NCBI GenBank assembly: GCA_030704615.1 | Contig: CM060733.1 | Location: 55,366,001-55,430,000 of the forward strand | Origin: Takakia lepidozioides | Taxonomy: Eukaryota > Plantae > Bryophyta | DNA: 64,000 nt | Direction: 5' to 3' | Part shown: piece by piece, positions 1,858 through 41,149 of the stretch | Numbering within the stretch: position 1 is the stretch's first letter | How the letters are laid out: each line of letters begins with the position of its first letter | Program-made: the position numbers and the translations under genes | The notes under the pieces: generated by a model | Seen by the model: only the letters and a program-made list of their open reading frames with translations | Told to the model about the DNA's origin: nothing | Database searches by the model: none

Positions 1858-1859
1858 AT

Positions 1860-5107: not shown

Positions 5108-5250
5108 TTCCTGTAAGCCCTCAGGAACCGCCGTATACGTCGTCTCTCTCCTCCGGTGACAATGGGTCCAATGTCAGGCTCCCAATTGTCCTCCGTAACT
5201 ACAACCTTAAGTCCAGTGGGCTTAGAGGTAGAGGACGCGTCCCGTGGTTG

Positions 5251-12211: not shown

Positions 12212-12370
12212 ACTGAAGGCAAAGCAATTCCTGTAAGCCCTCAGGAACCGCCGTATACGTCGTCTCTCTCCTCCGGTGACAATGGGTCCAATGTCAGGCT
12301 CCCAATTGTCCTCCGTAACTGCAACCTTAAGTCCAGTGGGCTTAGAGGTAGAGGACGCGTCCAGTGGTTG

Positions 12371-13864: not shown

Positions 13865-13869
13865 ATCCT

Positions 13870-17794: not shown

Positions 17795-18564
17795 TCACGT
17801 TGTCAATGGGACTTCGACTGCTCTCAGAACTAGCTCATGAGTCATGGGGCTCCTCCATGTAAAGTCGATTGCAGCCGTTGTACCGCCCCTAGTGATGTTC
17901 ACCACAATGTCCTGCCCTTCAATCATACCACCATCGAATATGGAAATCTTCACGTTTTCGTCGTCCACACCAATGCGAATGTCCCCATACAATGGAGAAG
18001 AGGAGCGCACTCCTCGAGGAGAATAGGTCTCTCCGATGGAGTCCACCCACGTCCAGTGGCAGCAGTTCCACCGCAACAGCATAGCAGTGCGCCTTCTTCT
18101 GCATGGGTGACCGTCGTAGCTGGGAAAATCGGAATCGAGGATGCGCAGGAGCCACGGACTCCTCAGACCAAGATCGTCACCCCGCTCGAAGGCGTAGTGG
18201 CTACGATATACTCAAAAGCCACCAATGTTTCCACAATCGAACCAGTATCTTCTGTGTAATCTGTGTACCAGATAACAATGTCTCCCGATGTGGCCGAATA
18301 CATTGCATAATCGATGCCTCCAAAGGGGCAGTCGTCCCGGTTCCGGAAGCACGGCATCCTTGCAAAGGAGGACCTGAGGACGACTTGGATGCCGATGACC
18401 TTGCGGACAGCTACGAAGCCCTTAGATTTTGGAAATGATACGAAGCGGAAGAGCAGTCCGGCCTCCAATAATGGAGCATCTGGGTCACACGTACCCACCG
18501 ACGGAGGTGGAACGTGTTCATCACGCCAGCGGTGGATGAACCCATACATCTTTCTCATCAACAA
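17795..18564 (-). pseudogene. Unknown cargo ORF, paralog 1
   Basis: RWNCCHWT..D..GETY...PLYGDIR...SIFDGGMIEGQDIVV is shared with 19092-19424. Confidence 0.55.
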
Positions 18565-18789
18565 GTTATAGTTTGAGATCTGCCACGAAGTCCATCCCCC
18601 GGATGGAAATTCGGCGCCGCATTTACATCGAAGAGGGGATGGACTTCGTCGTGTCCAGTGGCTATCGGCCCACCTGGCAGTGACTGCCCATAGTTTGCAT
18701 GGCAGGGTAGGAAACTGAAACGGCTACATTCATGCAGCAGCCAATCTTCATCGGTCCAGGATCCTGTAGGGGGGAAATTTAAATGTGCC

Positions 18790-19424
18790 GTGTTTGTGAG
18801 GAATTGCAGCGTTAGCTTGAACTTTTTCCAGCCACCGACATCCGGGAGCTGCTGTCTGAGCGTACTCCGCTACTCTTTTTTCGTGCCGCCGAAATCCAGC
18901 CGACTGCCCTTATCATGGCCACGATTATGCTATGTTCAAACCAGAATCAGACATCATTGTCTGGCTCTCTGTTTTCACAGACGCTGCTGGAATCAAGCAA
19001 GAGTCTTTGCGCGCAATGGAGTATCTGGAGGGCTATTACCGCTTTGAGCGAGGTGAGGGCGAGGGTCAATGCGGTCCGTGGGTCCTGAAAATTGTTGACC
19101 TCGATATACCAAGCAGGGATGCCGGACAGATCACGCACGGCCTCGCTTTGGCGCTGGAACTGCTGCCAGTGGACCAGGGAGGACGGCACCGGGGAAAACT
19201 ATATACGTGCAGATCACTCCGCTCTTCCAGTGTATGGAGACATTCGGCTGAGTTGCGAAGACGAATCGCACGGGCACATGAGGCCCACAGTGACCTTGTC
19301 AATGTATGATGGTGGTATCATTGATGGACATGACATTGTCGTCGGCTCCAGCAAGGGCAGCAGAACGACCGAATTGCAGTTTACCTCGAGGTTCAGTGAT
19401 GAGCTCGAAGTTCCGTCGACGTGA
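18790..19424 (+). pseudogene. Unknown cargo ORF, paralog 2
   Basis: RWNCCQWT..D..GENY...PVYGDIR...SMYDGGIIDGHDIVV. Confidence 0.55.
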
Positions 19425-19665
19425 AGCCCGGGCTTAGTTTTGTCTGCAGTTGGTAAATGTGAGACATCGTGTCCGATCATAAACCCATCGTACCTCACTT
19501 CTGTATGATTGTGTTTCATTGTGTTGAATAACTGTCGGAATTGGCCCACTGTTTACAATTTGATGTCTCATTTCTACAATGTGTCTGTCCGGATGAATAT
19601 AGCAGAGTAACCGGTATGTGAGTCATGTGTCAAGAATATACCAGAGTAACGCCATGTCGGACATT

Positions 19666-20378
19666 GAAATGCGGCACCGCATGTCGGCATCGAAATGCGG
19701 CGCCGCATTTCCATGTCCGAAATTTCCATGTGGGACAAGAAAATGCGGTGCATCATTTCCGTCCAGGTACACGAAATACCAACACGGGTCTATAAATTGT
19801 TTGGCATTGCAAATGCGGCGACGCATTTCCAGCTTGGCAATGGAAACTTCTTTTTGGACAAGGGAATGCGGTGCCGCATTTCCGTCCAACACTTCGAAAA
19901 GTGTGACATTTCCGACCAGCGCGATGGAATGCGTTACCGCATTTCCGAGAGAGGGTCTGCAAATGGACAAATTGCGATGTCCGTTCTGGAAATGCGGCGC
20001 CGCATTTCCATGTCCGTCATCGACTTTTTTTTACAATGGAATGCGGTGCCAATTTTTGCTGATGGGCCTGCAGTTCGAACAACGACCATCCCCATATGGA
20101 AATGCGGCACCGCATTTCAATCCCGCCATCTTCGACCTCCTTGTTCGACCTCTGTAAGCGTGGTGGCATCCATGCAATGAGCGGGAGAGGCCAAAACTGG
20201 CGTGTGGACAAAGGAAATTTTGGAAATGCGGCACCGCATTTCCAATTCAGATTACTTTTTACTATGCCAACATTGAAATGGAAAATTTAGTCCCTCCCCT
20301 GTTTTGGAAATGCGGTGCCGCATTCCAAAAGAGGTTCTTAGAGTTGCCAAAATTTTGGAAATGCGGTGCCCCATTTCT
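19666..20378. repeat. Palindrome cluster 1 (~12 x GGAAATGCGGYRCCGCATTTCC)
   Basis: Read directly; mostly non-repeated spacers; lies downstream of gene B. Confidence 0.9.
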
Positions 20379-20514
20379 GATTTTGGGAGCGTCGTGGTTT
20401 GGGCGATTGTGTGGCTGGAATGCACACTGGAGAGGGGTCACGAATGTCGGGCAGAATTTCCTTTATATACTCTGGAAGAGAATTTACATTTACAGAGACT
20501 TCATTAAAATTCTA

Positions 20515-23500
20515 TTAATCTTGAAAATCATCCGAATCCTCATCCTGTTCTAGACTGTCCTGCTCCTCCTCCACCCCCTCAGTGCCTCTCTCATCTCCAG
20601 CGGACTGCTCGTTGGCCAGGCTTTCGAAAATCCCATCTTCCCCTTGCGGAACTGTCCATCTCACCTCCGTTGGGTCGTCTTCCTCCCTGTCTGCGTCGCT
20701 CTCATCCGCTGAATCACATATGTACTTTCGTACCCGTCTACCTGTCTGAGCTGCTGCCAACTCTTTCCTTATCCTTCTGTCCTCCCTAGCCCTCTCCAAA
20801 ATCTGCTCTACTTTACTGGGATTCTCACTTCTTCTAATCGCTGTATTTGCGAGTTTAGCTGCATAACTAGGAAGGGAGTAGTCCCTCACCGGGCTCGTCA
20901 TGAAGTCGGCCCTCGCAAAGAACGGGACATTCTTCCTGGCAGGAAGTGTAGGCCCTACATGTTTCGACCCGGACCCTGCAATCCTGCACATGACAATCAT
21001 CAACGAGACTAATGAGAACCACAGTCGGGAAATTCGTTTGACATAAATGACCCAGAAGGCTTTGCAAACTTACAATGTTTGCACTCACTCGTATCCGGGT
21101 TCTCCTCCGCATCAATGTCCACTGTGTCTTCCTCGGACTCCGACGAATCCGAGGAGACTTCCGCTCTGTCGGGAGCCTTCACATTCCGTTGCAGCCCTCC
21201 AGATGGGATCCCCACACGGATGAATCTCCTCGTAGGCAAAGAGGTGCCGGTCGGAAAACCGCCCAGCCCACATTGAGGCACCTGTTACAATGCCATCCAC
21301 ACATTACCACATGGCGCTTCAGATGTTGCGAACTACATCCTAACGAGAATTTGCAGAACAGCAGAGATCAAGATTCTGCATACCTGTCCCACAGATGAGG
21401 TCGAGCACTGTGCCCTCCACGTCTGTGCATGTCTCCATAATTGTCTGAATGAAGGCAGGGCTCCGAGTCCGTGAGTACCGCAGGGGTTCCGTTGAGTGAG
21501 GCTATGAGGGAGAGTTCCTTGGGAACGTTGTTGAACAGAACGTCGTAATCGAGTGGGTCGCAGTTCGGGTCAACCTTTCCTCCCTCCTTCCGGAAAGCAA
21601 AGGTGGAGTTCTCCTTCACAAAGCAGTATGCATCGAACTGCTTCGTCTGCATACACAGGGGGAAAACGATTAGAAACCGAATGCGGCACCGCATTTGAAA
21701 AACACCCAAGCAAATGAATGGACGAGTGCCAGTGTCGTAATCACCTTCTTCCCTTCCGACCGAAGGCCCAGTGTGTTGATGCACGTCCACTTCTTTTTCA
21801 GAATCGGGACGGCGCTCTTGCGGGTCCACTTCGCAATTCCTGTCTGAGTGTTTTTTCCTCTGCTCGCCAGGACAACCACACAGCCTCTGTCGTCCAACAC
21901 CATGCGGGCAAGCCCGAATCCTTTCTTCCAAAAGTCCTCCGAGTACCTGTTCCAAGATGGCAAAGCTTGCAGTCCTTCCACAGGCTCTCCGTCCGGAATA
22001 TCCAAGATGATCATATCGCAAGACCACTCGGTGGCATTTCCGCCCCTCCTACAATCCTTGTCTGCACACACCCTCTCAAAGAACGAGACCATATTCTGAA
22101 ATCCTGGGGTGTCGGAAGGCTCTTCGGCAGTCGCCTTCTTCAGTGCTCTGCCCTTCAGACCCTCCATGGTCTTCATGTATGCCAACTTGGCTGCCCGTCC
22201 ATCCAAAGCCGCCACTCTCATTTACACACTGGACTACTGTTTCGGGAGCCTTTCGGCCTCTTCATTTCCACCGGCTCGAAAGGGTGCCCCCCTGGGGGGT
22301 TGAAGAGTGCCTTCTTTGCCGAGCCAGTTCTCGTGCCTCTCGTGACAACGGTGGGCACAGGGGAGGCAGCCTGCGTTTGGGGGGGTGGGCTGGTTGCAAA
22401 GTCTCCATCGGAGTCCTCTTCCTCACCCTCTTCCTGAACAGGCTGTTTCTGCTTCTTCGTTTTGGCGGGTGTCACAACAGCTGCTCCTTGCTGGCGAGTC
22501 CTCTTCTTCGACCCCTTCTGTTGGGCCTGCACAGCTGCATCCACCGTCTTTTGTGCCATCTCAGCTGCCTTTCTGGATTCTTCCAGAGCAGCAGATTCCT
22601 TTGCCGACTTGGGCCCAGCAGGGACACGTCTTTCCTTTCTCTTCTCTTCTGCCAAGGCGTGCAGATCTTTCTCAGACTCGTCAACAATACCGCCAGACAT
22701 GTCCAGGTACCACGGGCATCCAACGAGATGCGCGGGATGCCATTGTTTCTGCATCTCGGGTGTGTAGACACAGCTTGGGCCCGCCACGGTCCAAGCCATG
22801 AAGAACGGGGGCTCTTGAGCCAGGGCCCCTGTCTGAAGGAGCACGTATTTCATATACCTGCAAGGCAGTCAGCATGCGTGAGCAAAAGTTGAGACCAACC
22901 TACTGGCAGAGTGCCACCGAAAACATAAAATGCGAATGCGGTGCCGCATTTCCGAGACAAACCTCGTAACCAGGCTTCGCATACAAGGGCAGCTGTGCTT
23001 CACCTGTAAACAATTCGCATTGCAGCTTTCCCCGCTCCCTCCTGATGTGTAAACTCCACGCTCCTTCTTGCTGTCTGTAGCTCTCTGGCGAAAAGGTTGT
23101 CCTTGTACGCACATCTGAAACGTGTCACGTAGTCTTCCAATGTCTGTGTTCCATCCCATTTGACGTACAAGCCGAACGAATTTGTGTGCATTACGACTTG
23201 CTCCTTCGCATTCGACATTACCTGCGATTCCCAAATGCATTGTCACGTAGCAGTTCAGGGAATTCATGTCAGAAAAGCAAATCTGGGGAAGTACCTTGAA
23301 TTACCTGGAACCACCAAGTCATACGGTTGAGCCACATCCACTGCAGGGTCGGAAACTTCAGTGGAAAAGACCACATTGTCCTTATGCTCTCGGATGCATT
23401 CCAGATCGACAGCCACCGTGTCTGCCATTTCCGATCCAATGTCAGGAGCTGGAAGAGAGTGGCTATTGCTAGGAAGGAACTTCAGTGCATTGAAACCTCA

Positions 23501-25716
23501 CCTTCTTTCGCCTCCACACATGCCGTTGAGAGGTGATGCAGTTTCTCCAATTGCATGGTCGGCTGCATGGCCCGAGAATAGTGTTTTGCAATCTCGGGGA
23601 TGAAGTCCTTTCCAAGTGCCGGATCTGCAATTGCCACCAGCTTCACAAGCTTTGACTTGTATTTGGTTCTGGACTTGACACCGGCTTCCTTCAAGTGCTC
23701 AGTCAATGACTGCAACGTTTTGACCTGCCCCTCACTTTCCATGAAGAAGCGTTTGGCATGGGCCAAATCCAGCTTGATGTTTGACTGCCAACAAAAACAT
23801 GCAGAAGCGTTACATTCGATTCATGTGGAAACATTACTGAAAATTGGGGAAGGATGAGCAGAGGGAAATTGGAGACGACTTACTTCGTATATCACCTCCA
23901 CCATTCCATCCATAGTGAGACGATACCATGTCCGGTCTGTTTTTGCAACGGCTTTCTGAATGAGCTCGGGCTCCAGCATTTCCGCAAACATCTGCGGATC
24001 AGTGAGACCAGTTTTCCTCACCCTGTACAGCATATGTGCCATGTGGGTATGCACGTACGCATTCTCAGTGACCCTGCAAGGCACACTCTCCAGTTCAGTA
24101 CACGGAAGCACGGAAACAAACCAGAATGGAAACCGAAATGCGGCACCGCATTTCGAACGTGCTAGGGAGGGTATGAGTATCTTACGAGTTGAGGTCCGCC
24201 ATGGCATTCTTGAGCAGGGAGGAGTCTGCCGCCTTCACCTTGAGGATGACACACTCCACCATGTAATGCCAGCCAATGTGCTTGGCATGGTTCTGCTTGA
24301 TGTACTCCCACCAGGCGAGAAGTCGGTGATTCCCGTCCCACACAAAGACATTTTACCCGACATATGGCCGAAGTCGGGATCACCCTTCAGCGTCGCCTCG
24401 AATTCGTGGTTGCGAGTGTGCCAGTGGGTATCCCACGTTGACAATTCATCGGCAGTGGGTCCACGAGTTTCGCCGTCCTCATTCTCAATGGAAACGTAAA
24501 ACGCTGCCGATCCCAGACGGTACCCTTCTCGAAATGCGAACTTGAGCTTATCCACATCTCCGGGAAGGGCCTGCCTGACGATGGGAAGGGAGACCATGCG
24601 ACAGAGTGGGATTCGAAGAGTCCGCTGGAATACCCTGCTGCCCAGAACTCTGCCAATGCTACTGTGTGTCTCCTCCAACATTTTATCCGCTGCACTTTTG
24701 AAATCCTCCGGAGACATGTCTGTAGGTGCGTAGTGGCTGAGCAGCTGGAGCATCCTCAACTGGAGCTGCACTCTGGGGCCTGTGCGGGCAATTCTGCCAT
24801 TGCAGAGGCCTCCTCCGGGCCTGCTTGCTCATCGGTGGTGAGGTCTTGCTGCGAACGTTCAGCGGCAGCACCCTCCTCCGGTACCAAATCGAGATCAACG
24901 GTCGATCCCATTGCCTTCGCGCTGCAGCAGAGTCGGCCCCAACATCTGCAGGCGGGAAATCCTCCAGGAACTGAGCTTCAGCTCGTGGAAGCGGTTTTGC
25001 GGAGATTGTTCGCCCGTCGCCCTGATTGCCTTCTGCTTCCTCATCCTTGCAGGTGAAGGTGTCTGCTGCAATTGAATCTGTCTTCTACCCTGCTGCTTCA
25101 TTCGCGTTGGGGGGGGTGAATCGGCCTGAGCCGGTTCAGAAGCCAGTAGAGGGACGGGCTGCTTCTTCTTCGACTTTGCTGGAGAAGGGCCCGACCCCTG
25201 CTGGCGATTCTCCATGACCGAAGAACGCGAGTCGATCTCTGGGACTTTGAACTTGCCCTTCGAAGACGCGTCTTTGAATCGCAGAGGGCTAGGCCCGGCA
25301 GGAATACCCGCGCTCGGGGATCGGGTGGGTGTACGTGCTGCAGCTAGCTCCTCGGACTCTTCCTGCGGCTCTTCGGATTCCTGCGATCCCTCCAGCACGT
25401 CCACCTTTCCTGTTAGGCATGCAAACATGTTCTGCATTCAAGTCTCCTAGCATTCAGTCTAAGAATTACAGAAGCAAAATGGGGGGTTCGGTGCTCGATC
25501 AGCTGCGCGCAGCCCGATCGCATGGAGCTCTCACTGGTGGCTGGGTTGCCTGAGTGGCCTGCTGCTCGGAGATGGCAATCTCCTCCTGTAGACGCATCTG
25601 CTTCCTCCCCTTCGGCATTGGCCTACGTCCGAAGTATAATTTCCGGAGCTTGCGACGAGGTCTCCTGTCTGGTGCACGAACTCCCCCCTCTCAGGTTCGA
25701 GCATAAGAAGAACAGA
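20515..25716 (-). pseudogene. ParB/Srx + N6/N4 MTase-like gene B (multi-exon)
   Basis: VWDGNHRLLAW (~24310-24345, after a frameshift), CDMIILDIPDG (~22000), RSPAFIQTIMETCTDVEGTVLDLICGT|GASMWA..RHLFAYE. Intron positions shared with gene A. Start approximate. Confidence 0.75.
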
Positions 25717-26053
25717 GAGAGGGAAAAGGGGCAAAGAGTGCAGATGGAAAGGGCGCGAGAGGGGTGACTGAGGAGACACGACAAAAGTAGATGAAACGGC
25801 GGTGATGCACCACTTGGGTTCGAAAGGGTTGGACGAAAGTGTCTCCTCGTGGAGTTTGCGTCATTACGAAATTCGAATCGTTGAGGGTACGCCTGCCGTC
25901 CAAAAAACAAACATCATTATCCAACGGTCAGGCCGCGCGCCTCATGCCCCTTCAGTCAGATAGAGTGCCGACATGTGCAGCAATTCCGTTGCTCCACGTG
26001 TTCACATTTCAAGGCATTTCCGTCCCAGCGTCTGATGAGTTGGAGCGAAAATG

Positions 26054-27681
26054 CGAATGCGGCGCCGCATTTCCGTTAAGTACCATCACTGCTACACATC
26101 CGTACTTGTTGGAAGAAAATGCGGCACCGCATTTCGTTCCACCTTCACATACCTTAGTTGTTGAACGGAAATACGGTGCCGCATTTCCGTCCCACAGCTC
26201 CATGTATGAGATTCAAAGGGAAATGCGGCGCCGCATTTCCGTTCTGGAATGTCGAAAGGTGCGATTGGGACGGGAATGAGGCACAACATTTCAGTTCCCG
26301 TGGTTCATGATTTTCAATGTGAACGGAAATGCGGTACCGCATTTCCGTTCCCACTTCACATACGTTAGTTGATGAATGGAAATGCCGTGCCACATTTCCG
26401 TTCGGGAAAGTATAGAGGTCTCACCTGGACAGAAATGCGGTGCCGCATTTCCGGTCTGGAAAGTTGAAGGTCTCACATGGATGGAAATGCGGCAACACAT
26501 TTCCGTAGCACAGCTCCAGGCCCATATACAAAACGGAAATGCGGCGCCGCATTTCCGTTCTAGAATGTCGGAAGGTGCGACTCGAACGGAAATGCGGTGC
26601 CGCATTTCTGTTCCCGTTGCGCACGATTTTCAGTCAGAATGGAAATGCGGTACCGCATTTCCGTTCTGTAGAGTATTAACGTCTGACGCTGCGGAAATGC
26701 GTGCCGCATTTTCGTTCCACAGCTCCATGCCTCACATACAAAACGGAAATGCGGCGCCGCATTTCCGTTTTGGAATGTCGGAAGGTGCGACTCCGACGGA
26801 AATGCACCGCATTTCAGTTCCGATGTTTCTCAGAACGGAAATGCGGTGCCGCATTTCCCTTTGCGTTCTGGAATGTTGGGAGGTGCGACTCGGATGGAAA
26901 TGCGCTGCCGCATTTCAGTTCCGATGGTTCACGATTTTCAGTCAGAACGGAAATGCGGTACCGCATTTCCGTCAGGTGCGACTCGGATGGAAATACGGTG
27001 CCGCATTTCAGTTCAGATGGTTCACGATTTTCAGTCAGAACGGAATGCGGTGCCGCATTTCCGTTCTGGATAGTATGAATGTCTCAAGCGGTCGGAATTG
27101 CGCGAAGCTGTCGGAATCGCACTCGGCTCCATGCATCAGATACAAAATGGAAATGCGGCGCCGCATTTCCGTTCTGGAATGTCGAAAGTGCGACTCGACG
27201 AAATGCGGTGCCGCATTTCCCCATAATTCTCAATCAGAACGGAAATGCGGTACCGCATTTCCGTTCCACTTCACATACCGTGCGAATGAAAATGCGGTAC
27301 CGCATTTCCGTTCTGGAGAGTATGAATGTCTTTTAAGGACGGAAATGTGCTGCAGCATTTCTATCCCTCAGCTCCATGCATCAGATACAAAATGGAAATG
27401 CGGCGCCGCATTTCCGTTCTGGAATGTCGGAAAAGTGCGACTCGGACGGAAATGCGGTGCCGCATTTCTGTTCCCGTTGTTCATAAATCTCAATCAGAAC
27501 GGAAATGCGGTACCGCATTTCCGTTCCACCTTCACATACCGTGCTTGCTGGATGGAAATGCGTTACCGCATTTCCGTTCTGGAGAGTATAAAGGTTTCCC
27601 CCGGACGGAAACTCGGTGCCGCATTTCCGTCGCTCTGGTGCATGACCAAGATGCAATACGGAAATGCGGCGCCGTATTTCC
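26054..27681. repeat. Palindrome array 2 (~32 units, period ~52-53 bp)
   Basis: 22-bp palindrome with ~30-bp spacers falling into ~5 recurring types. Confidence 0.93.
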
Positions 27682-28095
27682 GTCCACCAGCAATCGAAAG
27701 AATCACTCGGGACGGGAAATCTGGAACCTGAATGGGTTGCATTGTTCCGAAACAACACAATTGCGGCCAGTCTTGATGAGCACAACTTGGTTGTCTGACC
27801 GTTTTAACAGCAGTCCTGGCACTTGTCAGTGCGAACGTTCCTGTCTGCACCGAGAATACTGCTGGATCCACCCTCAGGAGAAACTGTCAGGAGATGTTAT
27901 TTCGTCGCCGAATCGGCCATCATTGTCATACTACTGGCTATGGAATCAAACCTCCCACCTTCATGCATGTAGCTTGAAACAATACTTCCACTTCAATGTG
28001 CGACTTCCAATCGTCGATGGACTCCGCAGATCCACTTAGATGGTGCCTGTGAGCCTTGGTCTGTCGCTATACTGAACCTCGCACTTGCCAACTCC

Positions 28096-31022
28096 GTGCG
28101 GTTTTTGGCTCCGAATTCCTACGCTATAGTTTGCTGTCCTCCGCAACTTGGGAGAGCCTGGATCCCAAACGAGGGAGGACTTTGCAGAGTGACTGAAACT
28201 TACCTTTGTTCCAAATTCAAGCTCAAACCGGGCACAGTTTATTTGGAAGAAGAAAGGAAGGATGTTCCTGGACAGGTTGACGAGACCATTGTCGTGCTAG
28301 GTAACGACGGAGGTTGCGGAATCGAATGGCACGTTCCCCCGTCAGACACCATCCTGTACCGAGCTGTGGGAATGCCCATTCCCTTTCCGAATCAGTCGCT
28401 GCCCACACCATCCACAAAGGAGTCCGGAAACCGAGAGGCGGCCACTGCCAACAGAGAGGTATGCAACGATAATCATTCCCGACCTGGACCGTCAAGACCC
28501 TCCATAGCTTCTCGTGTGGACGTATTCGACATTTCCGACGAGGAAGATGATTGCATTGAGGTACCCATGTCCTCCACACGGTCGTTCCCGGCATGGACGT
28601 CTCTGTAGGTGCTACGCATGTGCCCTCGAGCATAACTCCAACCCGGTCCATTGTGCAGCTCCTACGACAACATCACCTCGATGGTTCTCGCTCCGAGCTG
28701 GCTGCTCTCGACTATGCCAAATTCCCAGTCAGAAAGGTAACTTTTCTGCCTCCCGAAGTCGATGGCAATGTCATCTTCGAGTTTCCACCTGTTTCTTCGT
28801 CAAAGAAAGCCTCCGGGATGTTAACAGACATGGATCGAAAGCATGACGGACACCCCTGGTGTGTGACGAAGACCAGTAGCACGAAAATTGCTGATGGTGT
28901 TCGTGTACGATATGTCCTCTGTGCGGGGAAGCTGAGGTGCCTCAATCCCACCTGCTTCCACTTTCTCTCCAAAGGAGGCGAGAAACGAGACGGATTGGAC
29001 TGGCACAACGCATCATCCATTCATTGTCTCCAGCCAAGCTCCTGCGGGTTCTTTCAAGTGTGCACATTGCAAAGAACCACCGACGTGCATGTCCATGTGC
29101 AGAGCCAAGCAATATTACGTTATCCATTTGCTCCCGGACTTGACTAGAGCTTGCATACACGTTGGGGTCCACTGCCACCCCTTGGCGAGAGGCAACATGC
29201 GTGAGGCTGTGCAGGAAGCACACGACATCATAAAAGAGGAGGTGAAATTGAGCCCCGGAGCCAGACCAAAGCAGATTCAGCTGAAGGCAGCCCACAAGAT
29301 TGCTCTTGGCAAAATCATGTCTGAAGATGGTTCCGACCGAGAGCCCTTGACCGAAGACGAGATGCGTGACCTCTTGGAGTCCGTCTCGCACGTTTGTAGT
29401 CCGAATGTGCGGAATCACATCGTATCTTGCAAGCAGGAGTTCGGCAGGGGGTCGGACATGTACTCAATCCTGGAGGTGAAACGAATGACTGGATATGACT
29501 ACATCCAAGGTAGCAGGTTTCCAGGGCAAGGCAGCGAATCCGATCGTTGTTACATTTTCAAAATGTCGACGTGTGGGCCTGGGAGTGGAGTCGACTTGGT
29601 CACTCGCATGACAACTGGAAACTTGTCGAATGCTTGGGTGATGTTTGATCACATCAAGCGAATTACAAACCATCAGTGGGTGACTATGGGTGCGCATGTT
29701 TATGACTATCACTCCAAGAGGCTCATGACGATTGCAATCTGCGAGATGAAAGGGGAGGACACACAGTCCGAGATGCATCTGTGGGAGGGCATAAACGAGC
29801 AGATGGCAAGGGCGGGATTGCCAGAGCCCAATTTCAGGGGATTCATGGCAGACAACGCTCAGGCCAACTGGGCAGCGGTGCGGCGTGGTACGGTGAGGAC
29901 CCCAATGTTCCAATGGAGGGGAAAGAGAGATCCTGTGGATTCCATTGGATGCAGAGTCTATCCCACTACACTACCAAATTTGTTGCTAGCTCATTCCAGG
30001 CTGAACACCGTGTCCTTTGTACGGCGTGGAAGGATGCACCCACATTTGATGACGCGGAGGTTAAGTTTGCTATCATCGAGGCTTGGTGGAACACGTCAGG
30101 TGCAGTGGAGACAACCAATCTGGGAGCATTGCACAGCTGGTTGGGGTGGTGGCATTTTCGGTATCGACAGTTCGGACAGTACATGCGGGGAGGTAGGCTG
30201 CTGTCAATTTCGTTCATTTGTCTTTCTGTTACGGACATTTCGATTGGTCCCTCACATTTTTGTGTCCTTCTAGGAGCGGTGCTTGGATTCCGACACGGAC
30301 ATGCCGAACACGAATATGGCAGAATCGGTCCACTCCTCTGGCGAGCGTCTTCTGCCGCACATCTGGTGGACGTAGTGACGGCCACAACGGAGGACATCGA
30401 CAGAGCAATCATGCAGCAAGCCACGTACTACAAGTTCCTGAGCGGCAAACAATGGGGCTTTGGGCCGGACAGGGAGGAATTGTTGGTACGAACAGCTTCG
30501 AGGTCCAAGAATCCAGTGAAATGGGCGACAGCATTGCGAGAGAAGATCAAAGGGACGCCTCTGGCACCGCAGTAGGTGAACACCTAGAGGGGGACGTCCG
30601 GACTCGCCCTGTCAGGCGGAGGATTGAAGAGGAACCCGGGTGCGAAGAGGATTCCTGGAGATCCGACAGGAACATTCGGACAGCACCTCGAGGTCCCGTC
30701 ATGTTGCCGCACAATGTGTCTTCCAGCAGTGGAAGCCCAAGAAATTCCAGATCGCCGTCGCCTTCAACCGGGGATTTCGTGCAACAAATTCCCACCGCTC
30801 CCTTGCCCCACATTCCGCCCGCTGTTATGCAGTATGGCCAAGCCATTGTGGAGACGACTGTGTCTGCCTCACAGTGGAGAATTGCTCGCACAAAGCCGTC
30901 GTTTCGAGGAAGGTGTTCCGCAATTCGTGTGGATACACGGCAACGTTGTTTAGAGATGATAAGGAGGAATCCAGATGGGGCTGTCCTGCTCCTACTTTAC
31001 AGGAAGATTTGTCCATGCAAAG
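28096..31022 (+). pseudogene. Mutator-like (MULE) DDE transposase with GCM-like N-terminal zinc domain
   Basis: DGHPW..C.GKLRC.N..C / C..KQY / HVGVHCHP (GCM-like); WVMFDH, GFMADNA, CGFHW and NTNMAESVH (D, D, CxxH, E). Frameshifts present. Confidence 0.75.
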
Positions 31023-32996
31023 TCCCCACTCTCACAGAGTGTAGCTGCCAGCCTGAACACCTCAGCTGGTCTTATTCCCGGCGTCGCAATCATGGTAGCC
31101 GAGAACAATGGAGCCTGGCACACAGATGTGGCCGCTCCTAACAGCACACTAGCTGCCGTAGCCTTGGCAACACTAGGTAGTGGTGTTGCCCGTGTAGCTC
31201 TCCCCAATGGCATAGTAACCTCCGCCTCGGTAATAGTCGGGCGAGAACTAGGTGCCATGGATGGCGTCGACACTGTCTCCGCCAATGTGAATGACTGAGG
31301 AAGCCTAGCCTGACGGCTTGCCTCCCCACGCTGTGGATCCAACTCCACCTCTGCACCTCGTGGCTCAGGAACTCGTGCTGCTCCTCGAGTCACGGCTGCA
31401 GCAGACTCCACCTGCACTAGTGGTAGTGCTGCTCCACACATGAATCCCATGCCTCCCATATCTCCTCCTCAGGAACAGGAGGTGGACCATCCGGCCTTAG
31501 AGCCGGTACCACCTGAGCTGTAGCCATGGCAGCGAGCCTCTGCTCTAGCTGCTGAAGCCGGTTGGCCATGCCTTGGTCAACACCCTGACCTCCGCGTCCT
31601 TGGCCACGTTGAGCTTGCCCTTGGCCTGCACCTCGTGGCTGGCCACCTCGTCCTCTCTGGGCTGCTCCACCCTCGCCCCCGGCCACCATTGTTCCCTTGG
31701 AACTGGCCTGGGCGCAACTCAGGATGCAAACTATAACACTGGGCCTCTCATGCCCGTGCTTGCCACAATGCCCACACTGCAACTGTGCAGGCTGTGCATG
31801 TGCCGACCCTTTGCCTCCCTCTGGGCAATCCTTCTTGACATGGGGTCCTCCACATGTCCAGCACACCACATCCGCCCGTTGTTGGCCAGCAAATGAAGGG
31901 AGAGACCCCTGCATCTGAGGTCCTCTCTGCCCTTCCCTAAGCTTCACCTGAGCCCCTTGTTGCCTTGAGCACGTTGAGGTAGTGGTTGGCTAGGAGCACC
32001 ACTACCCCGTGGTGTCTCCTTAGCAAATCCCACCATGACCACTCGTTCCTCCACCATGTTGAGCTCTATCCGCTCTGCCAGCAAAAAACACATTTGTTAA
32101 GGTGGGTTGGGCCGCTTGTAGGAGAGTTGCATCCCGCACCCTTCTCCTCAGTTCCTTGTCCAATATCCCATACCAGAATTGGACTGCCTGAGCTTCCGTA
32201 ACCCCTTGGGTTACATTTATCAAGCGCCTCATGCGAGTGAAAGCCTCCCTCAAGCTCTCGGTCGGCTTCCGTTGGAACTCTTGCAAGCTCCGCAACTTCT
32301 CTGTCCTCACCCCTTGGTAGTTCCCTCTCAACTCTTCGAAGAACTCCACAACAGGGTTGAAGGCAGGCACGGGTGCTAGTGCTGGTGCGTAGTAGTAGCT
32401 TGGGTGGATGTCGTAGCTACTGTACCACCTGTCCCACTGCTACTTGCTGAAGCTGCCGGTGTAGCGGCAGGTGTAGCCATTGCCCTCGTGGCTCTAGTGC
32501 CCCTAGTGATGGAGACATAGTTGGGTGACCAGTACATCCTTCACTCCTCGATCTCAACCTCATGCCCCGCCTGAACTCATGGTAATCATCCATAGGCGGC
32601 CCCTCAAGGTGCTGAAACAGCCCTTTCCATGCCATGAACGGCGTAAATAGTTGTGGATTGCGCATTTGCTGCAAATCACACCAACTATCAAACTCTTGGA
32701 TAAAATCATCCAACTCAATGGTGCCCACCGCCCCAGAGTACCTTCGTGGCCCTTGGTAGCTCCATACATCTCCTCCATTGTGTCCCACAACAATGGCAAA
32801 GAAACAACTTGCACCGCCGGTATGAGCCCTCCTGATTCACAATCCGAATCAGAACCTTCTGTGGAAGACACAGGAGGTGAAGGTGGCCTAAACCGCACAC
32901 CTCGTCGTGTACCCACTAGTATCGCTAGTGCTCGAACCGGCACTGTCCCAGCAACTAGTGGCACCTCCGTGTTGACACTCAACCGGTCATGAACAT
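31023..32996 (-). pseudogene. gag region of Gypsy copy 1
   Basis: Collinear with 14552-16523; zinc knuckles present. Confidence 0.85.
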
Positions 32997-33239
32997 GTCC
33001 CTAACCCCCTCTCCACAAGGTAACCGGGTAGAGAACCTGTTGCGGCTTATGGTTTGGAATACTAAGTTCCTAACATAGCCTACACCTGAACTTGCATGAC
33101 CATGGAATATCATGAAGATACTCCTCAAACCGCCCTCCACGAGCTTCAAAATTCGGCCTTCCAGACCACATGTCAGTCCTTAGTCCACCAGTGCCTCCAC
33201 GAGTCAGCATAGGCCATCCACAGGTCAACACGGGCCACC

Positions 33240-34262
33240 ACAGACCAGCACAGGCCCACACAGCTCACTGGTCACAGCCGTCACAGTCCCACAGGCCACT
33301 GGGCACATCCTGTCACAGCCCCTCACAACTCGTCACAGCCTCAAAGGCCTCAGGCACAGCCTGTCACAGCCCCTCACAGCCCGTCAAGGCCTCAGCACGA
33401 CCTGTCACAGCAGCCGTCACAGCCTCAAAGGCCTCAAGCACGGCTGTCACAGCCCCTCATAGCCCATCACAGCCCCAAAGGCCTCAGGCACGGCTGTCAC
33501 AGCCCTCACAGCCCGTCACAGCCCCAAAGGCTCAGGCACGGCCTGTCAAAGCCCCTCACAGCCCATCACAGCCCAAAGGCTCAGGCACGGCCTGTCACAG
33601 CCCTCTCAGCCCGTCACAGCCCCAAAGGCCATGGGCACGGCCTGTCACAGCCCTCACAGCCCGCAGCCCAAAGGCCATGGGCACGGCCTGTCACAGCCCC
33701 TCACAGCCCGTCACAGCCTCAAAGGCCTCAGGCACGGCCTGTCACAGCCCCTCACAGCCCGTCACAGCCCCAAAGGCCATGGGCACGGCCTGTCACAGCC
33801 TCACAGCCCGTCACAGCCTCAAAGGCCTCAGGCACGGCCTGTCACAGCCCTCACAGCCCCAAAGGCCATGGGCACAGCCTGTCACAGCCCGTCACAGCCC
33901 CACAGGCTCAGGGCACAGCCTGTCACAGCCCCGCACAGCCCGTCACAGCCCCAAAGGCCACTGGGCACAGCCTGTCACAGCCTGACACAGCCCGTCACAG
34001 CCCCACAGGGCACAGGGCACAGCCTGTCACAGCCCATCACACCCCCACACAACAGCCTGTCACGCTTGCCACAGCCTGTCACAGCCCGTCACAGCCCGTC
34101 ACAGCTGTCACGTGCCACAGCCCGTCACAGCCCGTCACAGCCGTCACCTGTCACAGCCCGTCACAGCCCCCAGGCCACGGGCACAGCCGTCACAGCCCCA
34201 CAGGGCACAGGGCACAGCCTGTCACAGCCCATCACAGCTTGCCACAGCCTGTCACAGCCCCA
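33240..34262. repeat. GTCACAGCC-based minisatellite in the Gypsy 5' leader
   Basis: Dozens of tandem variants; a short version occurs in copy 2 (17230-17339). Confidence 0.9.
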
Positions 34263-34789
34263 CACATGGCCGCTATGGCAGTTTAGCCATTTCTCCAAGG
34301 GGTTTAGCCACGCCAAGCTAGGGTTTGTGTCTCTTGGACTCTAGGCTTCTTCCACCGAGCTATGGTGGCTGTGAGGAAATCAGCAAGGTATCCTTGCTCT
34401 TTCGGCTCCCCACACCACCATAGTAGCCCTAAGCCATGAGGTGGTTGCCAACAACCAAGCCTTCTTTCTCACTTAGCCTCCCCAAACACGCCACTAAACT
34501 CAATGGAAACAACCAAGCACTGCCACTAAACTCAATGGCAAACACCAAGCCCTGCTGGTTCCAGCCTTGTGAGCACTCATTCAAGCACTTCCCTCATTGG
34601 CCATAGCATCTGTCTTAGAGCCTATTCCAGCCCTCTACACCTGTTGCTTCAAGAGTTGCGCTCCCTTCAAGCTTGAAGTTGAAACCCCAACTCACATAGG
34701 CCCTACAAGTGCTGTTCTTTCACTCTAAGTGGAAACCAGCCCTAGACCTTCCGTTCTAGCTCTCTAAGGCTTGAAAACAAGAGCCTCAA

Positions 34790-35115
34790 TGGGCTGAAGG
34801 CATGCTCCACACATGCCCCACTCTCACCATAAGAGAATCAGCTCCTTTGCTTCATTTCTTGCACCCACAAACCTGATAATACAAGCTTCAGCAGGCTGAA
34901 AGCATGCTCTACATGCCCTACAGGGAAACCAGCCCCTTCCTTCCTTTCTTGCACTCCCACACCTAAAAGTGCAAGCCTTCACGAGGCTGAGAGCATGCTC
35001 CACACATACATTGCCCTCACATAAGGGAAGTCAGCCCTTCCCTCTTCCTTGCTTGCCCTCCAAGCTGGATGAATACATTCTCCACACATGCAACCTCTTC
35101 ACACAGATATCAGCC
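34790..35115. repeat. Degenerate ~100-bp tandem repeats in the Gypsy leader
   Basis: Recurring GCTGAA.GCATGCTC..CACATG...CAGCCC units (3-4 copies). Confidence 0.55.
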
Positions 35116-35786
35116 CCCTATCTTGGCTCCTTGGCTCCTTGATGCTCTCTATGACAAGACTAAGCACTCCATAGCCTTTGCCAAGCTCCTGAAACCCTAA
35201 GGCTTACATTTCCAGCCACAAGACACTTCTCTTGTGGTGCAAGAACTCTTCTTCCAAGCTCTGAAACCCTAGGTGCACATTCCATGGCCTTGCCGCACCT
35301 CTTAGCTCCTGTTCCAGCCCTGTTCTTGCCATGACAAGAGCCCTCCTCTCAATGCTGAAGCTCGAGATTGAAACCCAATCTCACCATACTCCACAAAGTG
35401 CACTGATTTGCCCCAAGCAAAATCAGCCCTTTCGCTTGGTCTTGCAATCCTTCACACAATGAAAGCTCGCATTCCAAGTCCAGTTCTCAGCTTTGCCACC
35501 AAAGCCACTATAACCTGCTCTTGACTGGTCCTCTTCCCAATCGTGCTTGCTCATGCATGTACACAATCTGGAACCATCAAGGTGCTCTGGAATTACCTGC
35601 AGCATGGTGCTTTCTCTCTGAAGCTGAAGATCGAATGCCAAGGTCTACCACCTCGTAACCCACATCGCCTCCGCTTCTAATAACTAAGAGCTCCACGGTG
35701 CTCCTTGCATAACAACTTGGTTTCTCTCATTCTCAAGCAAAAACCACAAGTGCTACAACTAACTCGTATGGCACTTACAGATACGA

Positions 35787-35802
35787 GCTGATCTTTCTCG
35801 AG
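35787..35802 (-). promoter_or_regulatory. Self-priming primer-binding site
   Basis: Abuts X1; complementary at 15 of 16 nt to LTR positions 35973-35988; no tRNA-type TGG start. Confidence 0.7.
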
Positions 35803-36131
35803 TGATAAAGAAGAAGAAGAATACGAGCACAAGCTCATGCGAGCTCACAAAGCTGAAGCATAAACTCATGCATATATAACCTCATCACTCAAATACAAGT
35901 CAAGCCAAGTGCACCCCACGCCATGGGGGGAATCCACACTACGGCGCCATAGCTAGGCGCGGTGAGGCTCAACTCGAGAAAGATGAGCCTCCCCGCTTGC
36001 CGTGAAGAAACCACTCCAGGGCCTAAATCTGCCTTGACCCCTGGATTGACACTTGGGCCAATCCCAAATATCAATATGTAAAAGCTAGCTATTTCCTAGC
36101 TAGTTTCACACTAGTGGTAAAATAACTTGAC
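35803..36131 (-). repeat. Terminal repeat X1 (5' half-LTR, ~329 bp)
   Basis: Near-identical to 1341-1667 and 8500-8816; no Y segment on either side. Confidence 0.9.
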
Positions 36132-36190: not shown

Positions 36191-39100
36191 GGTAACTGAG
36201 AATGCCTTCATGCCACCAACTTGTCCCATATGCTCTTCCGAGTGAAGGATGTCGGGAAGCAGGGGTGCAAGAGTTTGCCAATTCCCTCAGTGCCGACCTC
36301 CTGCGCAAGTCGGAGGCAAAGGCAGACAGAACCTGGTATAGGCTGAGCGTCGACGCCATGGTGGACTACATATTTCGGGTAAAGCTCCTGATAGTTTTGT
36401 TGAGCTAATCTGTCTCTCCTCCCCCAATAGAAGAAATTGTGTTGAGCATGATCTTTAATCTTATGTGCGCATTCTTGACAGACGAAAATACAGCAGGATT
36501 TGGCACATGCGCGGAGGTTCTACATGGAGTCAGAGGAGAAGAATCCAACCCTCCCGGAACTCGAATCGTATGTCAAAGCTGCGGAGGGAGAGGGCCCACA
36601 TAAAGTACAAGTCGCGGATGGTAAAGTACGTGGCCATAGCTGATCCCGCCCTTGGTGCCGACTTTCTGGTGGAGGTGGGGAAGCACTACTCTCGCGCTCT
36701 GAAGCCCACGATGACATTGGAGAAGCTCCATCGTCTAGCCACATCCTGTGTGGATGCAACAGAAAAGGTGATACATTCTTAACCAAATTGTGGTGGCAAC
36801 AACTCCTTTTTGTGGTGTTTGGCGCTTACGAATATGCTGGGTGGTTGGACAGACCCGGTGGCTCCAAATCTGGAATGGTTCCCAAAGTACCAGGGACATG
36901 TGGAGTTTCCCAAACCGGACAAACTCTCTGACCCCACATTCGACATGTGGATGAACCGCATGACATGGTGGTTTCAGGTACTTCCCTACGCTTCGTTTGG
37001 GGCTTCTACTCTAGTAGGGGTGGATTCATTGTATTTTTTCAGGAAAGCGATCTGATGGAGAATCTCCACAGGTGACGATGAATGCGCAAAGAGCAGCTGG
37101 ACACAACAAGCACATCAGTTCAAGATGGAGATATCTCCTGCGCAGCAGAGAGCCTACGTGACTATGTGACGAGGACTTTATGCTCTACAAAACCAACCTA
37201 TTCTTTCGGTGGGAGATAGCAGATGCTCGCCGGAGCCACGAGTTCACCGACCAGCCGAACGCGGACAAAGCAGCAATGCACCTTCTGTACATGTACATAC
37301 GCGCTGCCTTTCTTTCAAGTCCTTGCATTTCAGGATGTTAGAGGCCTCAAGTGGTGTTAGGGAAAATGGCGCCGAATTTCCAGTCAGGGCCGAAAATGGC
37401 TAAGTCCCTAGACAGGCTGGCCCGGAACTGGAAATTCGGCGCCATTTTCCAGTTCCAGGCCCTATTGCCGTTCAGGGACTTAGCCATTTTCGGGCTAAGT
37501 CCCTAGGGTTGCTGGCCCTGAACTGGAAATCGGCCCTTTCCAGTTCTAGGCCCTATTGCCGTCCAGGGACTTAGCCATTTTCGGGCTAAGTCCCTAGGGT
37601 GGCTGGCCCGGAACTGGAAATTCGGCGCCGTTTTCCAGTTCCAGGCCCTATTGCCGTTCAGGGACTTAGCCATTTTCGGCTAAGTCCCTAGACTGGCTGG
37701 CCCTGAAGTGGAAATTCGGCGCCATTTTCCAGTTGTAGGCCCTATTGCCGTTCAGGGACTTAGCCATTTTCGGGCTAAGTCCCTAGGGTGGCTGGCCCGG
37801 AACTGGAAATTCGGCGCCATTTTCCAGTTGTAGGCCCTATTGCCGTTCAGGGACTTAGCCATTTTCGGGCTAAGTCCCTAGGGTGGCTGGACCTGAACTG
37901 GAAATTCGGCGCCATTTTTCCAGTTCTAGGCCCTATTGCGGTTCTGGGACTTAGCCATCTTCGGCCCAAACCGGGAAAAATGGCACCGAATTTCCATTTC
38001 AGGGCTTCCAAGATGGCTAAGTCCCTAGGGTGGCACTCACCGAAAACCGAAATTCGGCGCCATTTTTCCATTTCTAGGCCCACTCACATCCGCCCCAACC
38101 TGGGAAAATGGTGCCGAATATGCATTTCAGGGACCTCATTGTGTTTTTCATGAATGCAGGTACTGCAAGTTCTCCCTTTTGGAGAAAGGTCATCTGTCTT
38201 TCGAGCCACCATTCTTCCTGGCATGGAGGAACCTTGGGGCTGACTCCATGTACACTGACGATATTGTGAAGGAGTGGCATCTGGAACATTTGCGTGATTG
38301 CCGAGTTTCAATTGAAGCTGGATGCTGAATTCCGACGAAACCGGGCTCCGCTGCCTCCGTTGGGTGCAAAAGAGGCAAAAGCGCTTGCGAACTCCAGGAA
38401 AGCGGCAGAGCTTGCTCAGACAGGAATTCTGGAGAAATTGCATGAGAAGAGTAAAGGCCAAAGGAAAAGGACAAGGAAACAGGTGAGTGCAGTACACCCC
38501 AAAAAGAAGAAAACCATCGGGGCATCGGAGGAGGCGCAGGAGGGGACCCAAGAGAGTGACTCGGACGACGACTTTGTTCAAGGTCCTGCGATTGCTGTTG
38601 CTCCTACCTAGTCACCGGTCGTCCGGGTTCCCAAGTCAGTTCGGAATGGGACTGGCTCTGCCAGAAGTTGGCATTTGAGGGCGAGCCTACACGGCGGTAT
38701 TCGGCGGTGACGTTTACGCACAGGCCAAAGCTAGAACCTCCAACCATCATCCAATGCGTCAATGAGAGCTTCCTTGACGCTCTCGCTGCCAGGGCGAAGA
38801 AGGTGGCACACAACAAGTCTCTGGCGGAGCAGAAGGGGAAAGCCAAGAAGAGGGCTGGCGGTACAGAGCCTAAAGACACCCCTGGTTTTGAAGCCATGAT
38901 GGAATTCTTCACGGCTGTGAGCACGAATTGCAAGAGCACTCGGGGGGGGGGGTTGAGGTGGAGAGAGCTTGCGACATGATTCTCCTCGACATTCTAGATG
39001 GGGAGCTGCTGGAGGGCCTGGATGGTGTGCCCACCTGGAACAGGTTTACTGAGGACTACTGGAAAGCCGGGTTTGGGCTGGCAGGGATGCTTCTGGATGA

Positions 39101-40468
39101 CGGTGGATGTGTGGTTGCCCTTGCCACGAGAGGGAAGACCACAGAGAATGCGGTGGCAAGGTGGACACCGAAAAGTGTCACCCCGGTCCTCCTCAGAAAA
39201 TGGTTCTACATCAGTACACAGGGGTTGCGAACAGAGGGCCAAAGTGTAAGTTATCAATCTTTTGCATTCACCTCATATTGTGGTGTATGTTAAGTAGACC
39301 CTGGAGTTGATCCCTTCTTTGTTGGATGTGCAGACATTGGTGTTTGAGGCATATTGCTTTGTGAAGAGAGGGTCTACGTTCAAATTCCGCAACGACGGTC
39401 GTCTTGTTGATGCCGCTGTGGACCCTGTAACCTACGATGTCCTCTACAACTATGTGCCCCACTCCAGTATGCCGAAGGACACAAAGACAGGCAAACCGTG
39501 GCGGTACAGCCGGACCCGGAGCCCTGCTTTCATCCAAACCCTCATGGAGACGTGCTCGGATGTCCAAGGGCGGATTCTGGACCTCACATGCGGCACGGGT
39601 AAGCCTTCACGTGCTCAGTTTGTCCCCTGGCCCGATTGCAATTGCATGCCGCAAGCTATTAACCGCCCGCTTTGTTCCTCAGGTGCTTCAATGTGGGCAG
39701 GGACGTTGTCCGACAGGCATGTGTTCGCCTTCGAGCCAGATACTGCCCTCCACAACTCGGAACTTACAGCGGCTGAACGTCTGCCGAAAGAGGAAGAGGC
39801 ATCCTCGGAGGATGAGGAAAAATCTGAGAAGGAGCAGGGGGAGGAAGTTGGGATCGAGGCCGAGGAGCCCCCGGTTTACGAGTGAGTGGTGGCATTGTAA
39901 GTTGCCTCCAGATTTTGTGAGGCACCTCCCTCCGCTCTCTTATTTCATTGAAAACCCTTTGTGGTTGTGCTGGTATTGACATTCTTGAAGTGGATTTGTT
40001 CTTACTGTAGGATGCCAAGTACTGCCGGAGGGACGTCTACACCGGAGTTCATGGGCAGGAGGAACGTGCCTTTTTTTGCCAGGGGGGATTTCATGCCTAG
40101 TCCAGAAAGGGAGTAGATCCTTCCTACTTATGCTGCCCGGCTTGCTTCGGTGTCCATTAGGAGGTGTTCCGAACGTAGTCGTGTACAGCAGATTTTAGAC
40201 GAGGCAAGCCTCAAGAAAATGAAGATGAGGGAGGAGGCAGCAGCTATTAGAGCCCGTCGGGCTCGTAGATTTGTGTTGGATTCTGCTAAGGAAAGTGGGG
40301 GAGAAGACGCAGAAGATTCCCAGGAGGTGAGGTGGACAGTCCCCCAAGAAGAGGACGGGATTTTTTAGAGGCATAGTGGAACTGATGCATCACAGAGCTC
40401 GAGACGAGGGGGATGAGGGGGATGAGGAAGAAGGTGGGGCAAGTTCCTCGGAGGGTGTAGGAGAGTAG
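36191..40468 (+). pseudogene. Remaining exons of ParB-MTase gene A, including beta-class N6/N4 DNA methyltransferase-like domain (~38970-39740)
   Basis: CAG|G GTA ACT GAG AAT joins exon 1 in frame (INS-VTEN). CDMILLDILDG (motif IV position), WN..YW..LLDDGG, RSPAFIQTLMETCSDVQGRILDLTCGT|GASMWA..RHVFAFE (motifs X/I). Several GT-AG introns, frameshifts and stops. Confidence 0.72.
37361..38128. repeat. Intronic array of ~95-bp units, each with GGAAATTCGGCGCCATTTTCC and an AGGGACTTAGCC/GGCTAAGTCCCT inverted repeat
   Basis: Motif starts at 37430, ~37526, 37616, 37710, 37805 and 37900, with inverted copies at the edges; lies before acceptor CAG|G (38160). Confidence 0.9.
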
Positions 40469-41149
40469 TGCCCATTCCGGCTATGACAGTTAGAACACAC
40501 TTGTATAGACGTGGCTTGCCACAAAATTTGCAAAAAAATGTTGCATTTCAAGTCCACTGGTGCCACATTCCAACTTCACATGACCCTATTTCCGTGCCTC
40601 CTAACCCTATTTCCGTGGACTCACAATGGTCTGCTCATGCTTTTTTTTTTCCGCTCATGCTCATGCCGCTCATGAAATAGCAGCCCCCACTAAAGTACCA
40701 AGCAATAGATTTAGGGACTCAACTACAAAAGTCAAACCCAACGAGATGAACCAAACTTCTTTACTTTGTGCTACATGTCCCTTAGGTCAAAAATTCAATC
40801 ATGACAACAATATCAGGTGCCCTAAACTTTGCATGACCCTAACTATAGATGCATCGGGCAACTGTGAAGGCAACTTAACCCCATGTAACACATAAAAGTT
40901 TGCTGAACATCTACTGTGAGCTAGCTTCAGTGCAACACTCGTGTTTTTTCCCACGAGTGTGGGAAAAAACAAGAGGTTCACATTGGTGTGAACCCCAACT
41001 ATGGAGCCTGTTATGGACCAGATATGATCATTTGCTGAAGAATGGATGCAGCCAAATAATACATTCCAGCATTCAACACTGTTGACAGTCAAATTTTCTT
41101 TCAAACTTCGTCCTGGATGATACAAAACAGTTATTTTCAGACCACATAC

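Follow-up and report, generated by a model that had tools for sequence, protein, structure and literature searches.

Variant palindromic motifs, one of them amplified as an intronic array, in two families of ParB-like accessory genes of probable Mutator-like transposons in Takakia lepidozioides

We describe two elements, A and B, in a stretch of 64,000 nucleotides from the moss Takakia lepidozioides (hereafter the window, to which all coordinates refer), whose paralogous accessory genes are accompanied by palindromic motifs that are variants of one another and are almost mutually exclusive between the two elements, the motif of family A being amplified as an array within the fifth intron of its gene. 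These family palindromes are candidate sites for a dimeric, element-encoded protein, most likely the accessory protein with its predicted ParB fold, a reading which we favour with moderate confidence on the strength of the motifs and of predicted folds.

Genes A and B are accessory genes that belong to two families of a DNA transposon, probably a Mutator-like one. The relevant parts of the two elements lie in the window as follows.

1..1088, forward strand: exon 1 of gene A, open to the window edge, with the predicted ParB/Srx-fold domain at about 550-1088.
1151..36131, unstranded: a nested insertion of 35 kb made up of LTR retroelements and element B, which splits intron 1 of gene A and has CCTC on both sides.
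36191..40370, forward strand: exons 2-9 of gene A, with small indels relative to other copies and a methyltransferase-like part at about 38900-39780.
40530..40688, unstranded: right end of element A.
17345..17500, unstranded: left end of element B, which carries CATGAGC repeats; it and the right end of element A are homologous.
20500..25437, reverse strand: gene B, a paralogue of gene A lying inside the 35-kb insertion and having the same eight introns.
27973..30575, forward strand: frameshifted gene for the probable Mutator-like transposase of element B, oriented divergently from gene B.

At the protein level A and B are 64% identical over the ParB-fold part and 69% identical over a piece of exon 3. 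The right end of A and the left end of B, which have the CATGAGC repeats in common, align with a score of 109 against 34 for two control pairs, and in runs X5, X7 and X8 the contigs give out at about 40688, beyond which their flanks differ. The window includes a single end of each element, the right end of element B being truncated and matching neither. Over 1.3 kb of gene A, run X1 contains 8,348 small contigs among which variants are numerous, the pattern that a family of many copies should give. Mutator elements are characterised by terminal inverted repeats and a target-site duplication of 9-11 bp. The transposase of element B is probably Mutator-like: its Atlas neighbours are of the MULE/ZSWIM type (PF10551/PF21056) with scores of 0.78-0.81, which, being below 0.9, serve as a lead only, and it has neither a Pfam match nor a PDB sequence match. 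Homologues of this transposase are also divergent to the ParB-like gene in two related loci, L013 and L019, and the arrangement of an accessory gene carried in a transposon opposite the transposase is thereby seen in element B, L013 and L019. Between the left end of B and the array downstream of gene B, at 17477-19424, there are two related open reading frames in opposite orientation.

17795-18211, reverse strand, and 18860-19424, forward strand: the related reading frames of element B, with no Pfam match, in a region that is absent from element A.

On either side of element B lies a copy, in direct orientation, of about 2.4-2.8 kb of retroelement sequence (14552-17339 and 31023-33385, 88-96% identical); this duplication and the missing right end of B may be a feature of rearrangement or of the assembly.

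The array and the corresponding intron of gene B have the following structure.

37293..38159, forward strand: intron 5 of gene A, 867 nt with GT..AG boundaries, which houses the array.
22858..23003, reverse strand: the corresponding 146-nt intron of gene B, holding a single B-type site of 22 nt at 22932-22953.
37361..38123: copies of motif A, six on the forward and three on the reverse strand, plus a decayed copy near 37525.
37398..37964, forward strand: six tandem units of 91-97 bp, with 91% matches.
37390..37493, unstranded: the first unit, a 104-bp imperfect palindrome with motif A at its centre and outer arms in which 20 of 20 positions pair.

Motif A, a 21-nt sequence (GGAAATTCGGCGCCATTTTCC), has nine matches with three or fewer mismatches in the 64-kb window, all of them at 37361-38123 and none in the rest of the 64 kb, and the same search on shuffled sequence gave a match in none of 100 shuffles. 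The preliminary description had placed the motif in a palindrome of about 41 bp within units of 94-95 bp; the array itself is confirmed, while the imperfect palindrome measures 43 bp, with 34 of 43 positions paired, and the units measure 95, 91, 94, 95, 95 and 97 bp. The figure of about nine helical turns per unit is arithmetic only (from 94.5 bp). What had been described as a separate second inverted repeat in the units turns out to be the 20-bp outer arms of the 104-bp palindrome, seen across unit junctions. Motif A is present in five of the six tandem units, the remaining one having a decayed core between flanks that are kept, and since the array is young and homogenised it should be counted as about four independent sites.

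That the array occupies the same intron which holds a single site in gene B, as had been claimed, holds at the level of the codon: the peptides at the intron 5 junction align without gaps (A ...MHLLYM/YCKF..., B ...MRIVYR/YMKY..., where '/' is the intron), with the same codon and the same phase in both genes. Single B-type sites are also found in introns 1 and 6 of gene B and, because a total of three of its eight introns thus carry a site, the sharing of an intron, which has a chance of roughly 3 in 8, says little by itself. Beyond the motif, the two versions of intron 5 show no significant likeness, their alignment score falling within the shuffle range.

The contigs that overlap the intron bear on whether the array belongs to gene A or came into its intron as an independent MITE or satellite. 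A MITE would account for the long palindromic unit with its 20-bp terminal inverted arms, and one X5 contig, among the loose ends listed, sets a motif copy beside unplaced sequence before 37974. Against such an origin, the window has no copy of the array elsewhere, the core of the array is a variant of the B motif and other contigs bridge exon and array: one from X5 spans exon 5 and the first motif site (37274-37390), one from X7 spans a unit and exon 6 (38015-38302), and a loose end in X6 has a standard unit directly before 38131, adjoining the end of the intron. Among the 22 loose ends listed there is no unspliced copy with a different intron start. X5, X6 and X7 are runs of three studies, and their contigs imply that the build of the array varies between copies while its placement in the intron is constant. 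The contigs tie the array to gene A, and we regard its arrival as an independent MITE or satellite as very improbable.

A contig of 1,179 nt in run X8 joins exon 5 to exon 6, with the array absent, and in a second X8 contig introns 6 and 7 are removed at GT..AG boundaries. X8 and X10 are taken to be RNA, which is a guess; with X8 so regarded, the array intron is removed by splicing in a sister copy. Contigs of X6 and X8 carry 39 nt in exon 6 (at 38302) that are missing from gene A of the window. Other contigs, of X8 and X10, match gene A only at 36942-36979 and then continue into coding sequence that is related yet distinct, which hints at a third and more divergent family of accessory genes.

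The B-type sites are more widely distributed and, besides that of intron 5, comprise the following.

24134..24155: one site in intron 1 of gene B.
About 21677..21698: one site in intron 6 of gene B.
19665..20378: eleven dispersed sites downstream of gene B.
26053..27681: 29 sites between gene B and the transposase, with 18 of the 28 intervals measuring 52-54 bp.

On a matrix built from 44 B sites, eight of the A sites score 12-18 bits and the ninth 3.5, where the B sites themselves score 19-39 bits and the highest of 44,459 background positions reaches -1.9. On this comparison of sequences motif A is a true variant of the B motif, the relatedness being far above chance. Motif A departs from B at arm positions 7 and 15-17, which B keeps in 39-44 of its 44 sites, and the half-sites sort by element. 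The B-type half-site AAATGCGG occurs 65 times in element B and not at all in A or elsewhere; the right half-site of A, AAAATGGY, occurs 15 times in A and is absent from B and elsewhere; the left half-site of A, AAATTCGG, occurs eight times in A, once in B and once elsewhere. Motifs A and B are almost mutually exclusive between the elements, and the matrix scores and the sorting of half-sites bear out the earlier proposal that the sister family has a variant motif. Element B also contains a solitary hybrid site at 18605-18626, whose left arm is of A type and whose right arm is of B type, one base from B. A B-like remnant picked out by eye in intron 1 of gene A, near 36176, scored 0 or less on the B matrix and was rejected.

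Two properties of family A count against the sites being those of a dimeric protein matched to its family. Motif A is asymmetric, where a symmetric change would be expected of a homodimer; and family A, unlike B, has no motif from the end of the gene to the end of the element or in its other seven introns, a comparison that covers the part of element A inside the window, its intergenic region and transposase lying beyond the window edge. The decayed core in one unit weighs in the same direction.

The pattern of CpG retention, by contrast with these points, favours a bound protein. The two arm CpGs of the B sites are kept in 41 and 38 of 44 sites and the central CpG in 11 of 44, all 33 changed central CpGs having become TG, CA or TA. 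Among the 15 B sites outside the periodic array, whose flanks are unconserved, arm CpGs are kept in 28 of 30 cases against 4 of 15 for the centre (Fisher p = 8e-6). Retention of the arm CpGs would mark constraint or protection of the arms, and the loss of the centre beside kept arms points, for sites that are not fully independent, to a protein that contacts the arms.

These observations may be set against a different account of the array, in which the B sites are functional and the A array arose neutrally, an inherited and mutated site having grown into a hairpin unit that slippage or unequal exchange multiplied and that spread along with a successful family, the specificity of the protein undergoing no matching change. 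Such an expansion would suit a unit that is a 104-bp palindrome, an intron that folds strongly (z = -24 for intron 5 of gene A against 20 shuffles) and an array whose structure differs between copies, as in the X6 loose end, and it would require neither symmetry of motif A, nor a core in every unit, nor motifs in the other visible parts of A. It fits less well with the four further copies of motif A that flank the tandem units, three of them inverted, which keep the core while their flanks differ; with the two of these that have an altered centre, where the central CpG change is the same as in the B sites; with the CpG of the left arm, kept in nine of nine copies; and with the presence of the array in copies from several studies. 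We consider neutral expansion unlikely, and the binding of a family-specific protein to the palindromes remains our preferred reading.

More distant relatives of the gene allow the association of array and protein to be examined at greater depth. One metagenome scan yielded 23 related loci, amounting to 13 distinct sequences, in which neither motif A (four or fewer mismatches) nor motif B (five or fewer) is present. Other palindrome arrays lie directly upstream of the ParB-like gene in relatives, 0.05-1.3 kb from the match: the M1 motif (AACYCAAGCTTGRGTT type) at L003/L004, L012/L013, L018 and L019, and the M2 motif (GGGARCT-3-ARCTCCC type) at L007/L008 and L009. The M1 matrix was trained on L018/L019 and that of M2 on L009, and the results for those loci are circular. 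In a de novo scan covering 19 of the 23 loci, the best of 15 shuffles was exceeded by at least 2 in six of the 19 upstream windows and was exceeded in none of 15 control windows; near-copies inflate this shuffle test. The M2 array of L007 was missed by the de novo scan and was found by eye and then with the matrix. Counts of 11-mers in the relatives did not reveal the arrays, and clustering of palindromes gave hints only; among viral contigs neither a relative nor a motif was found. A second palindrome and a 95-bp period proposed for the M1 arrays were unsupported on checking.

M1 is confined to one side of a 93/89 branch of the protein tree and M2 to one side of a 79/75 branch; the motif type therefore follows protein clade among the distant relatives, as the preliminary description had anticipated. 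The result for M1 draws on three lineages and that for M2 on a single one. Between L013 and L019, alignment succeeds for the gene (global score +502) and for the far flank (+428) and fails for the array (-376), and both loci retain 10-12 M1 sites though the spacers are unalignable. L020 and L021, within the M1 clade, have no M1 in the 523 and 1163 bp that lie upstream, and L022/L023 have neither M1 nor M2; these loci and the small number of lineages tell against the preferred reading. At L014-L017 the upstream DNA is too short, and five loci close to L009 by protein, in which no M2 was found, are uninformative because the likeness ends about 500 bp upstream, before the array. Furthermore, a motif and a gene that are inherited together are expected to track one another even without binding, and this linkage, which suffices to explain the agreement with clade, must also be held against our reading. 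The earlier idea that protein and target motif diverge together as a specificity code is supported in part: the motifs sort by family, and their reading by the A and B proteins is a proposal.

The palindromes might alternatively be family-specific but bound by the transposase, as sites of a subterminal type or as promoter sites, with the ParB-like gene a mere neighbour. The transposase has the largest B array immediately upstream of it, the two genes travel together in L013 and L019, and the AtMu1 transposase is described in a 2026 preprint as activating its cognate copies in a sequence-specific manner (10.64898/2026.08.24.746577). The sites, however, cluster in and around the accessory gene and not at the element end, which has CATGAGC repeats of its own, and in Plavaka elements the arrays adjoin ParB-like genes in the company of another kind of transposase. 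Binding by the transposase seems to us improbable, and we return to the accessory protein as the more likely ligand.

The exon 1 product of gene A has a confidently predicted fold (pLDDT 94.7), which in a VIA comparison matches KorB (Z 7.9, rmsd 2.4, 90 aligned), PadC (Z 7.6) and Srx (Z 6.6). The eight VIA matches with Z of at least 5 are all of ParB/Srx type, a membership which for some of them we assume, and there is a clear gap below rank 8. The top rows of a Foldseek search are Noc, PadC, Srx and ParB, with a probability of 0.99 and E of 0.03 or weaker, and the Atlas score for a ParB/Srx-type fold is 0.95. The N-terminus is best described as a predicted ParB/Srx fold with middling scores (Z below 8, Foldseek E 0.03 at best), and it is these scores that temper the assignment of the palindromes to this protein. 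It contains a GNHRLLA stretch, which presumably corresponds to the GxxRxxA-type motif of ParB, and G130, N131 and H132 are conserved in at least 90% of 67 sequences. ParB reads DNA through a helix-turn-helix domain, and Srx, which has a ParB-like fold, is not known to bind DNA; it counts against our reading that a Pfam scan of B exon 2 and of exon 3 from both genes matched no helix-turn-helix family.

The C-terminus is weakly methyltransferase-like. PF01555 was found in five of five Riccia homologues scanned, with E from 5e-4 to 0.29, all short of the cut-off; those exons of the window that were scanned have no such match, and for the methyltransferase domain of a Riccia homologue the prediction gave no reliable fold (pLDDT 31.6). 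The available text on N4C/N6A DNA methyltransferases gives their catalytic motif as [DNSH]PP[YFW] (PMC4738411). At this position, located by reading the alignment, B has DIPD, A has DILD and the homologues have DLPS, DLPT or DMPS, and with the DPPY/SPPY motif missing the domain would more likely bind DNA than methylate it. The named homologues are hypothetical proteins of Riccia sorocarpa, and the accessory protein family comprises 1,105 clusters at E 0.001.

The window also contains features outside the two elements or within the intervening retroelements. Two copies of the LTR retroelement that interrupts gene A stand in tandem, with 97% identity.

5254-6612 and 12374-13885, reverse strand: one C5 cytosine methyltransferase domain per copy (PF00145, E 8e-11 and 7e-13), situated upstream of the reverse transcriptase region.

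The capture of methyltransferases by retroelements is reported for charophytes and dinoflagellates in the part of the literature source available (PMC5890265). A satellite of CACAGCCCGT type occupies about 1.1 kb of a retroelement (33116-34260), with a short copy at 17200-17340. Further downstream there are two host-type genes, a leucine-zipper fragment with a weak bZIP_1 match (42298-42555, reverse strand), which we take to resemble class III HD-ZIP, and an 825-residue frame of the GRAS family (53928-56402, forward strand), the latter of plant type.

The combination of a ParB-like gene with inverted-repeat arrays is known as a hypothesis of 2025 in red and brown algae. In the available parts of the two papers, self-binding of ParB-like proteins is proposed and no binding test is reported (PMC12477816; bioRxiv 10.1101/2025.02.11.637652). 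The Ectocarpus element Sola1-1_Ec32 has an accessory protein of about 1,100 residues with ParB-like and N4C/N6A methyltransferase-like domains, encoded on the strand opposite the transposase and proposed to bind and modify its own element (PMC12477816). The present elements are likened to it by description, and differ in belonging to a plant-type genome, in the probable Mutator-like transposase and in the degenerate-looking catalytic motif; the available description of Sola1-1_Ec32 includes neither palindromes nor family-specific motifs (PMC12477816). PAG3, of red-algal Plavaka elements, has a ParB-like N-terminus, with tandem inverted-repeat arrays beside the gene across families and self-binding proposed, but it has a 2OG-oxygenase domain, its methylase is in a separate gene and its arrays are adjacent, where that of family A is intronic; the portion of the report available contains no analysis of motif against clade (bioRxiv 10.1101/2025.02.11.637652). 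Of the traits of transposon accessory genes of the PAG3 and Sola1-1_Ec32 kind, A and B show the predicted N-terminal ParB/Srx fold, carriage by a DNA transposon and inverted-repeat arrays at the gene. No land-plant report of a ParB-like element, and no family-by-family comparison of motifs, was found in a literature search to which supplements and subscription papers were outside the scope. Bacterial ParB-parS, Noc-NBS and KorB-operator systems have the ParB/Srx fold and clustered palindromes in common with the present case, which differs from them in having a eukaryotic, spliced gene, no ParA and no recognised helix-turn-helix or dimerisation domain.

A second comparison is with VANC, the anti-silencing product of an accessory gene of VANDAL elements, which are also Mutator-like. 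As described in the available part of the report, a short motif is dense in the introns and in the intergenic and terminal non-coding DNA of these elements, the motifs are amplified as tandem repeats and differ between related families, and both binding and demethylation have been demonstrated for VANC (PMC5735166). A family-specific motif that is dense in non-coding DNA and amplified in tandem is likewise found here, although the VANC motifs are non-palindromic sequences of 8-9 nt in one orientation and those of A and B are palindromes of 21-22 nt (PMC5735166). The pieces of A and B exons that were scanned match no Pfam family and so contain no VANC domain (DUF1985, PMC5735166); the A and B proteins do not appear to be VANC homologues, and the likeness to the VANC layout is one of analogy.

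The history we propose is that an ancestor had a single site in intron 5, that in family A arm positions changed and a 104-bp hairpin unit formed around the site, and that duplication of this unit, both tandem and inverted, then multiplied it. The clustered sites would be where the protein loads, perhaps in the form of a CTP-dependent clamp like that of bacterial ParB, and its own family would be marked or protected against host methylation, much as VANDAL elements are by VANC. In its most specific form, the proposal would amount to a private address code of ParB/parS style in plant Mutator-like transposons, in which the ParB-fold protein of each family loads on its own array, spreads as a clamp and shields it from methylation, and in which A and B represent a specificity switch, four base changes in the arms being matched by changes in the protein. 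We offer this extension, which draws on analogy with the bacterial systems, only tentatively and think it doubtful as a whole.

The two families nonetheless form an attractive pair for such questions, since sister proteins that are 64-69% identical in the parts compared, with mutually exclusive palindromes, provide a built-in cross-control. If the specificity is confirmed, these elements would represent a second, independent route to self-recognition of the VANC kind and would offer orthogonal DNA-targeting pairs for plant epigenome work.
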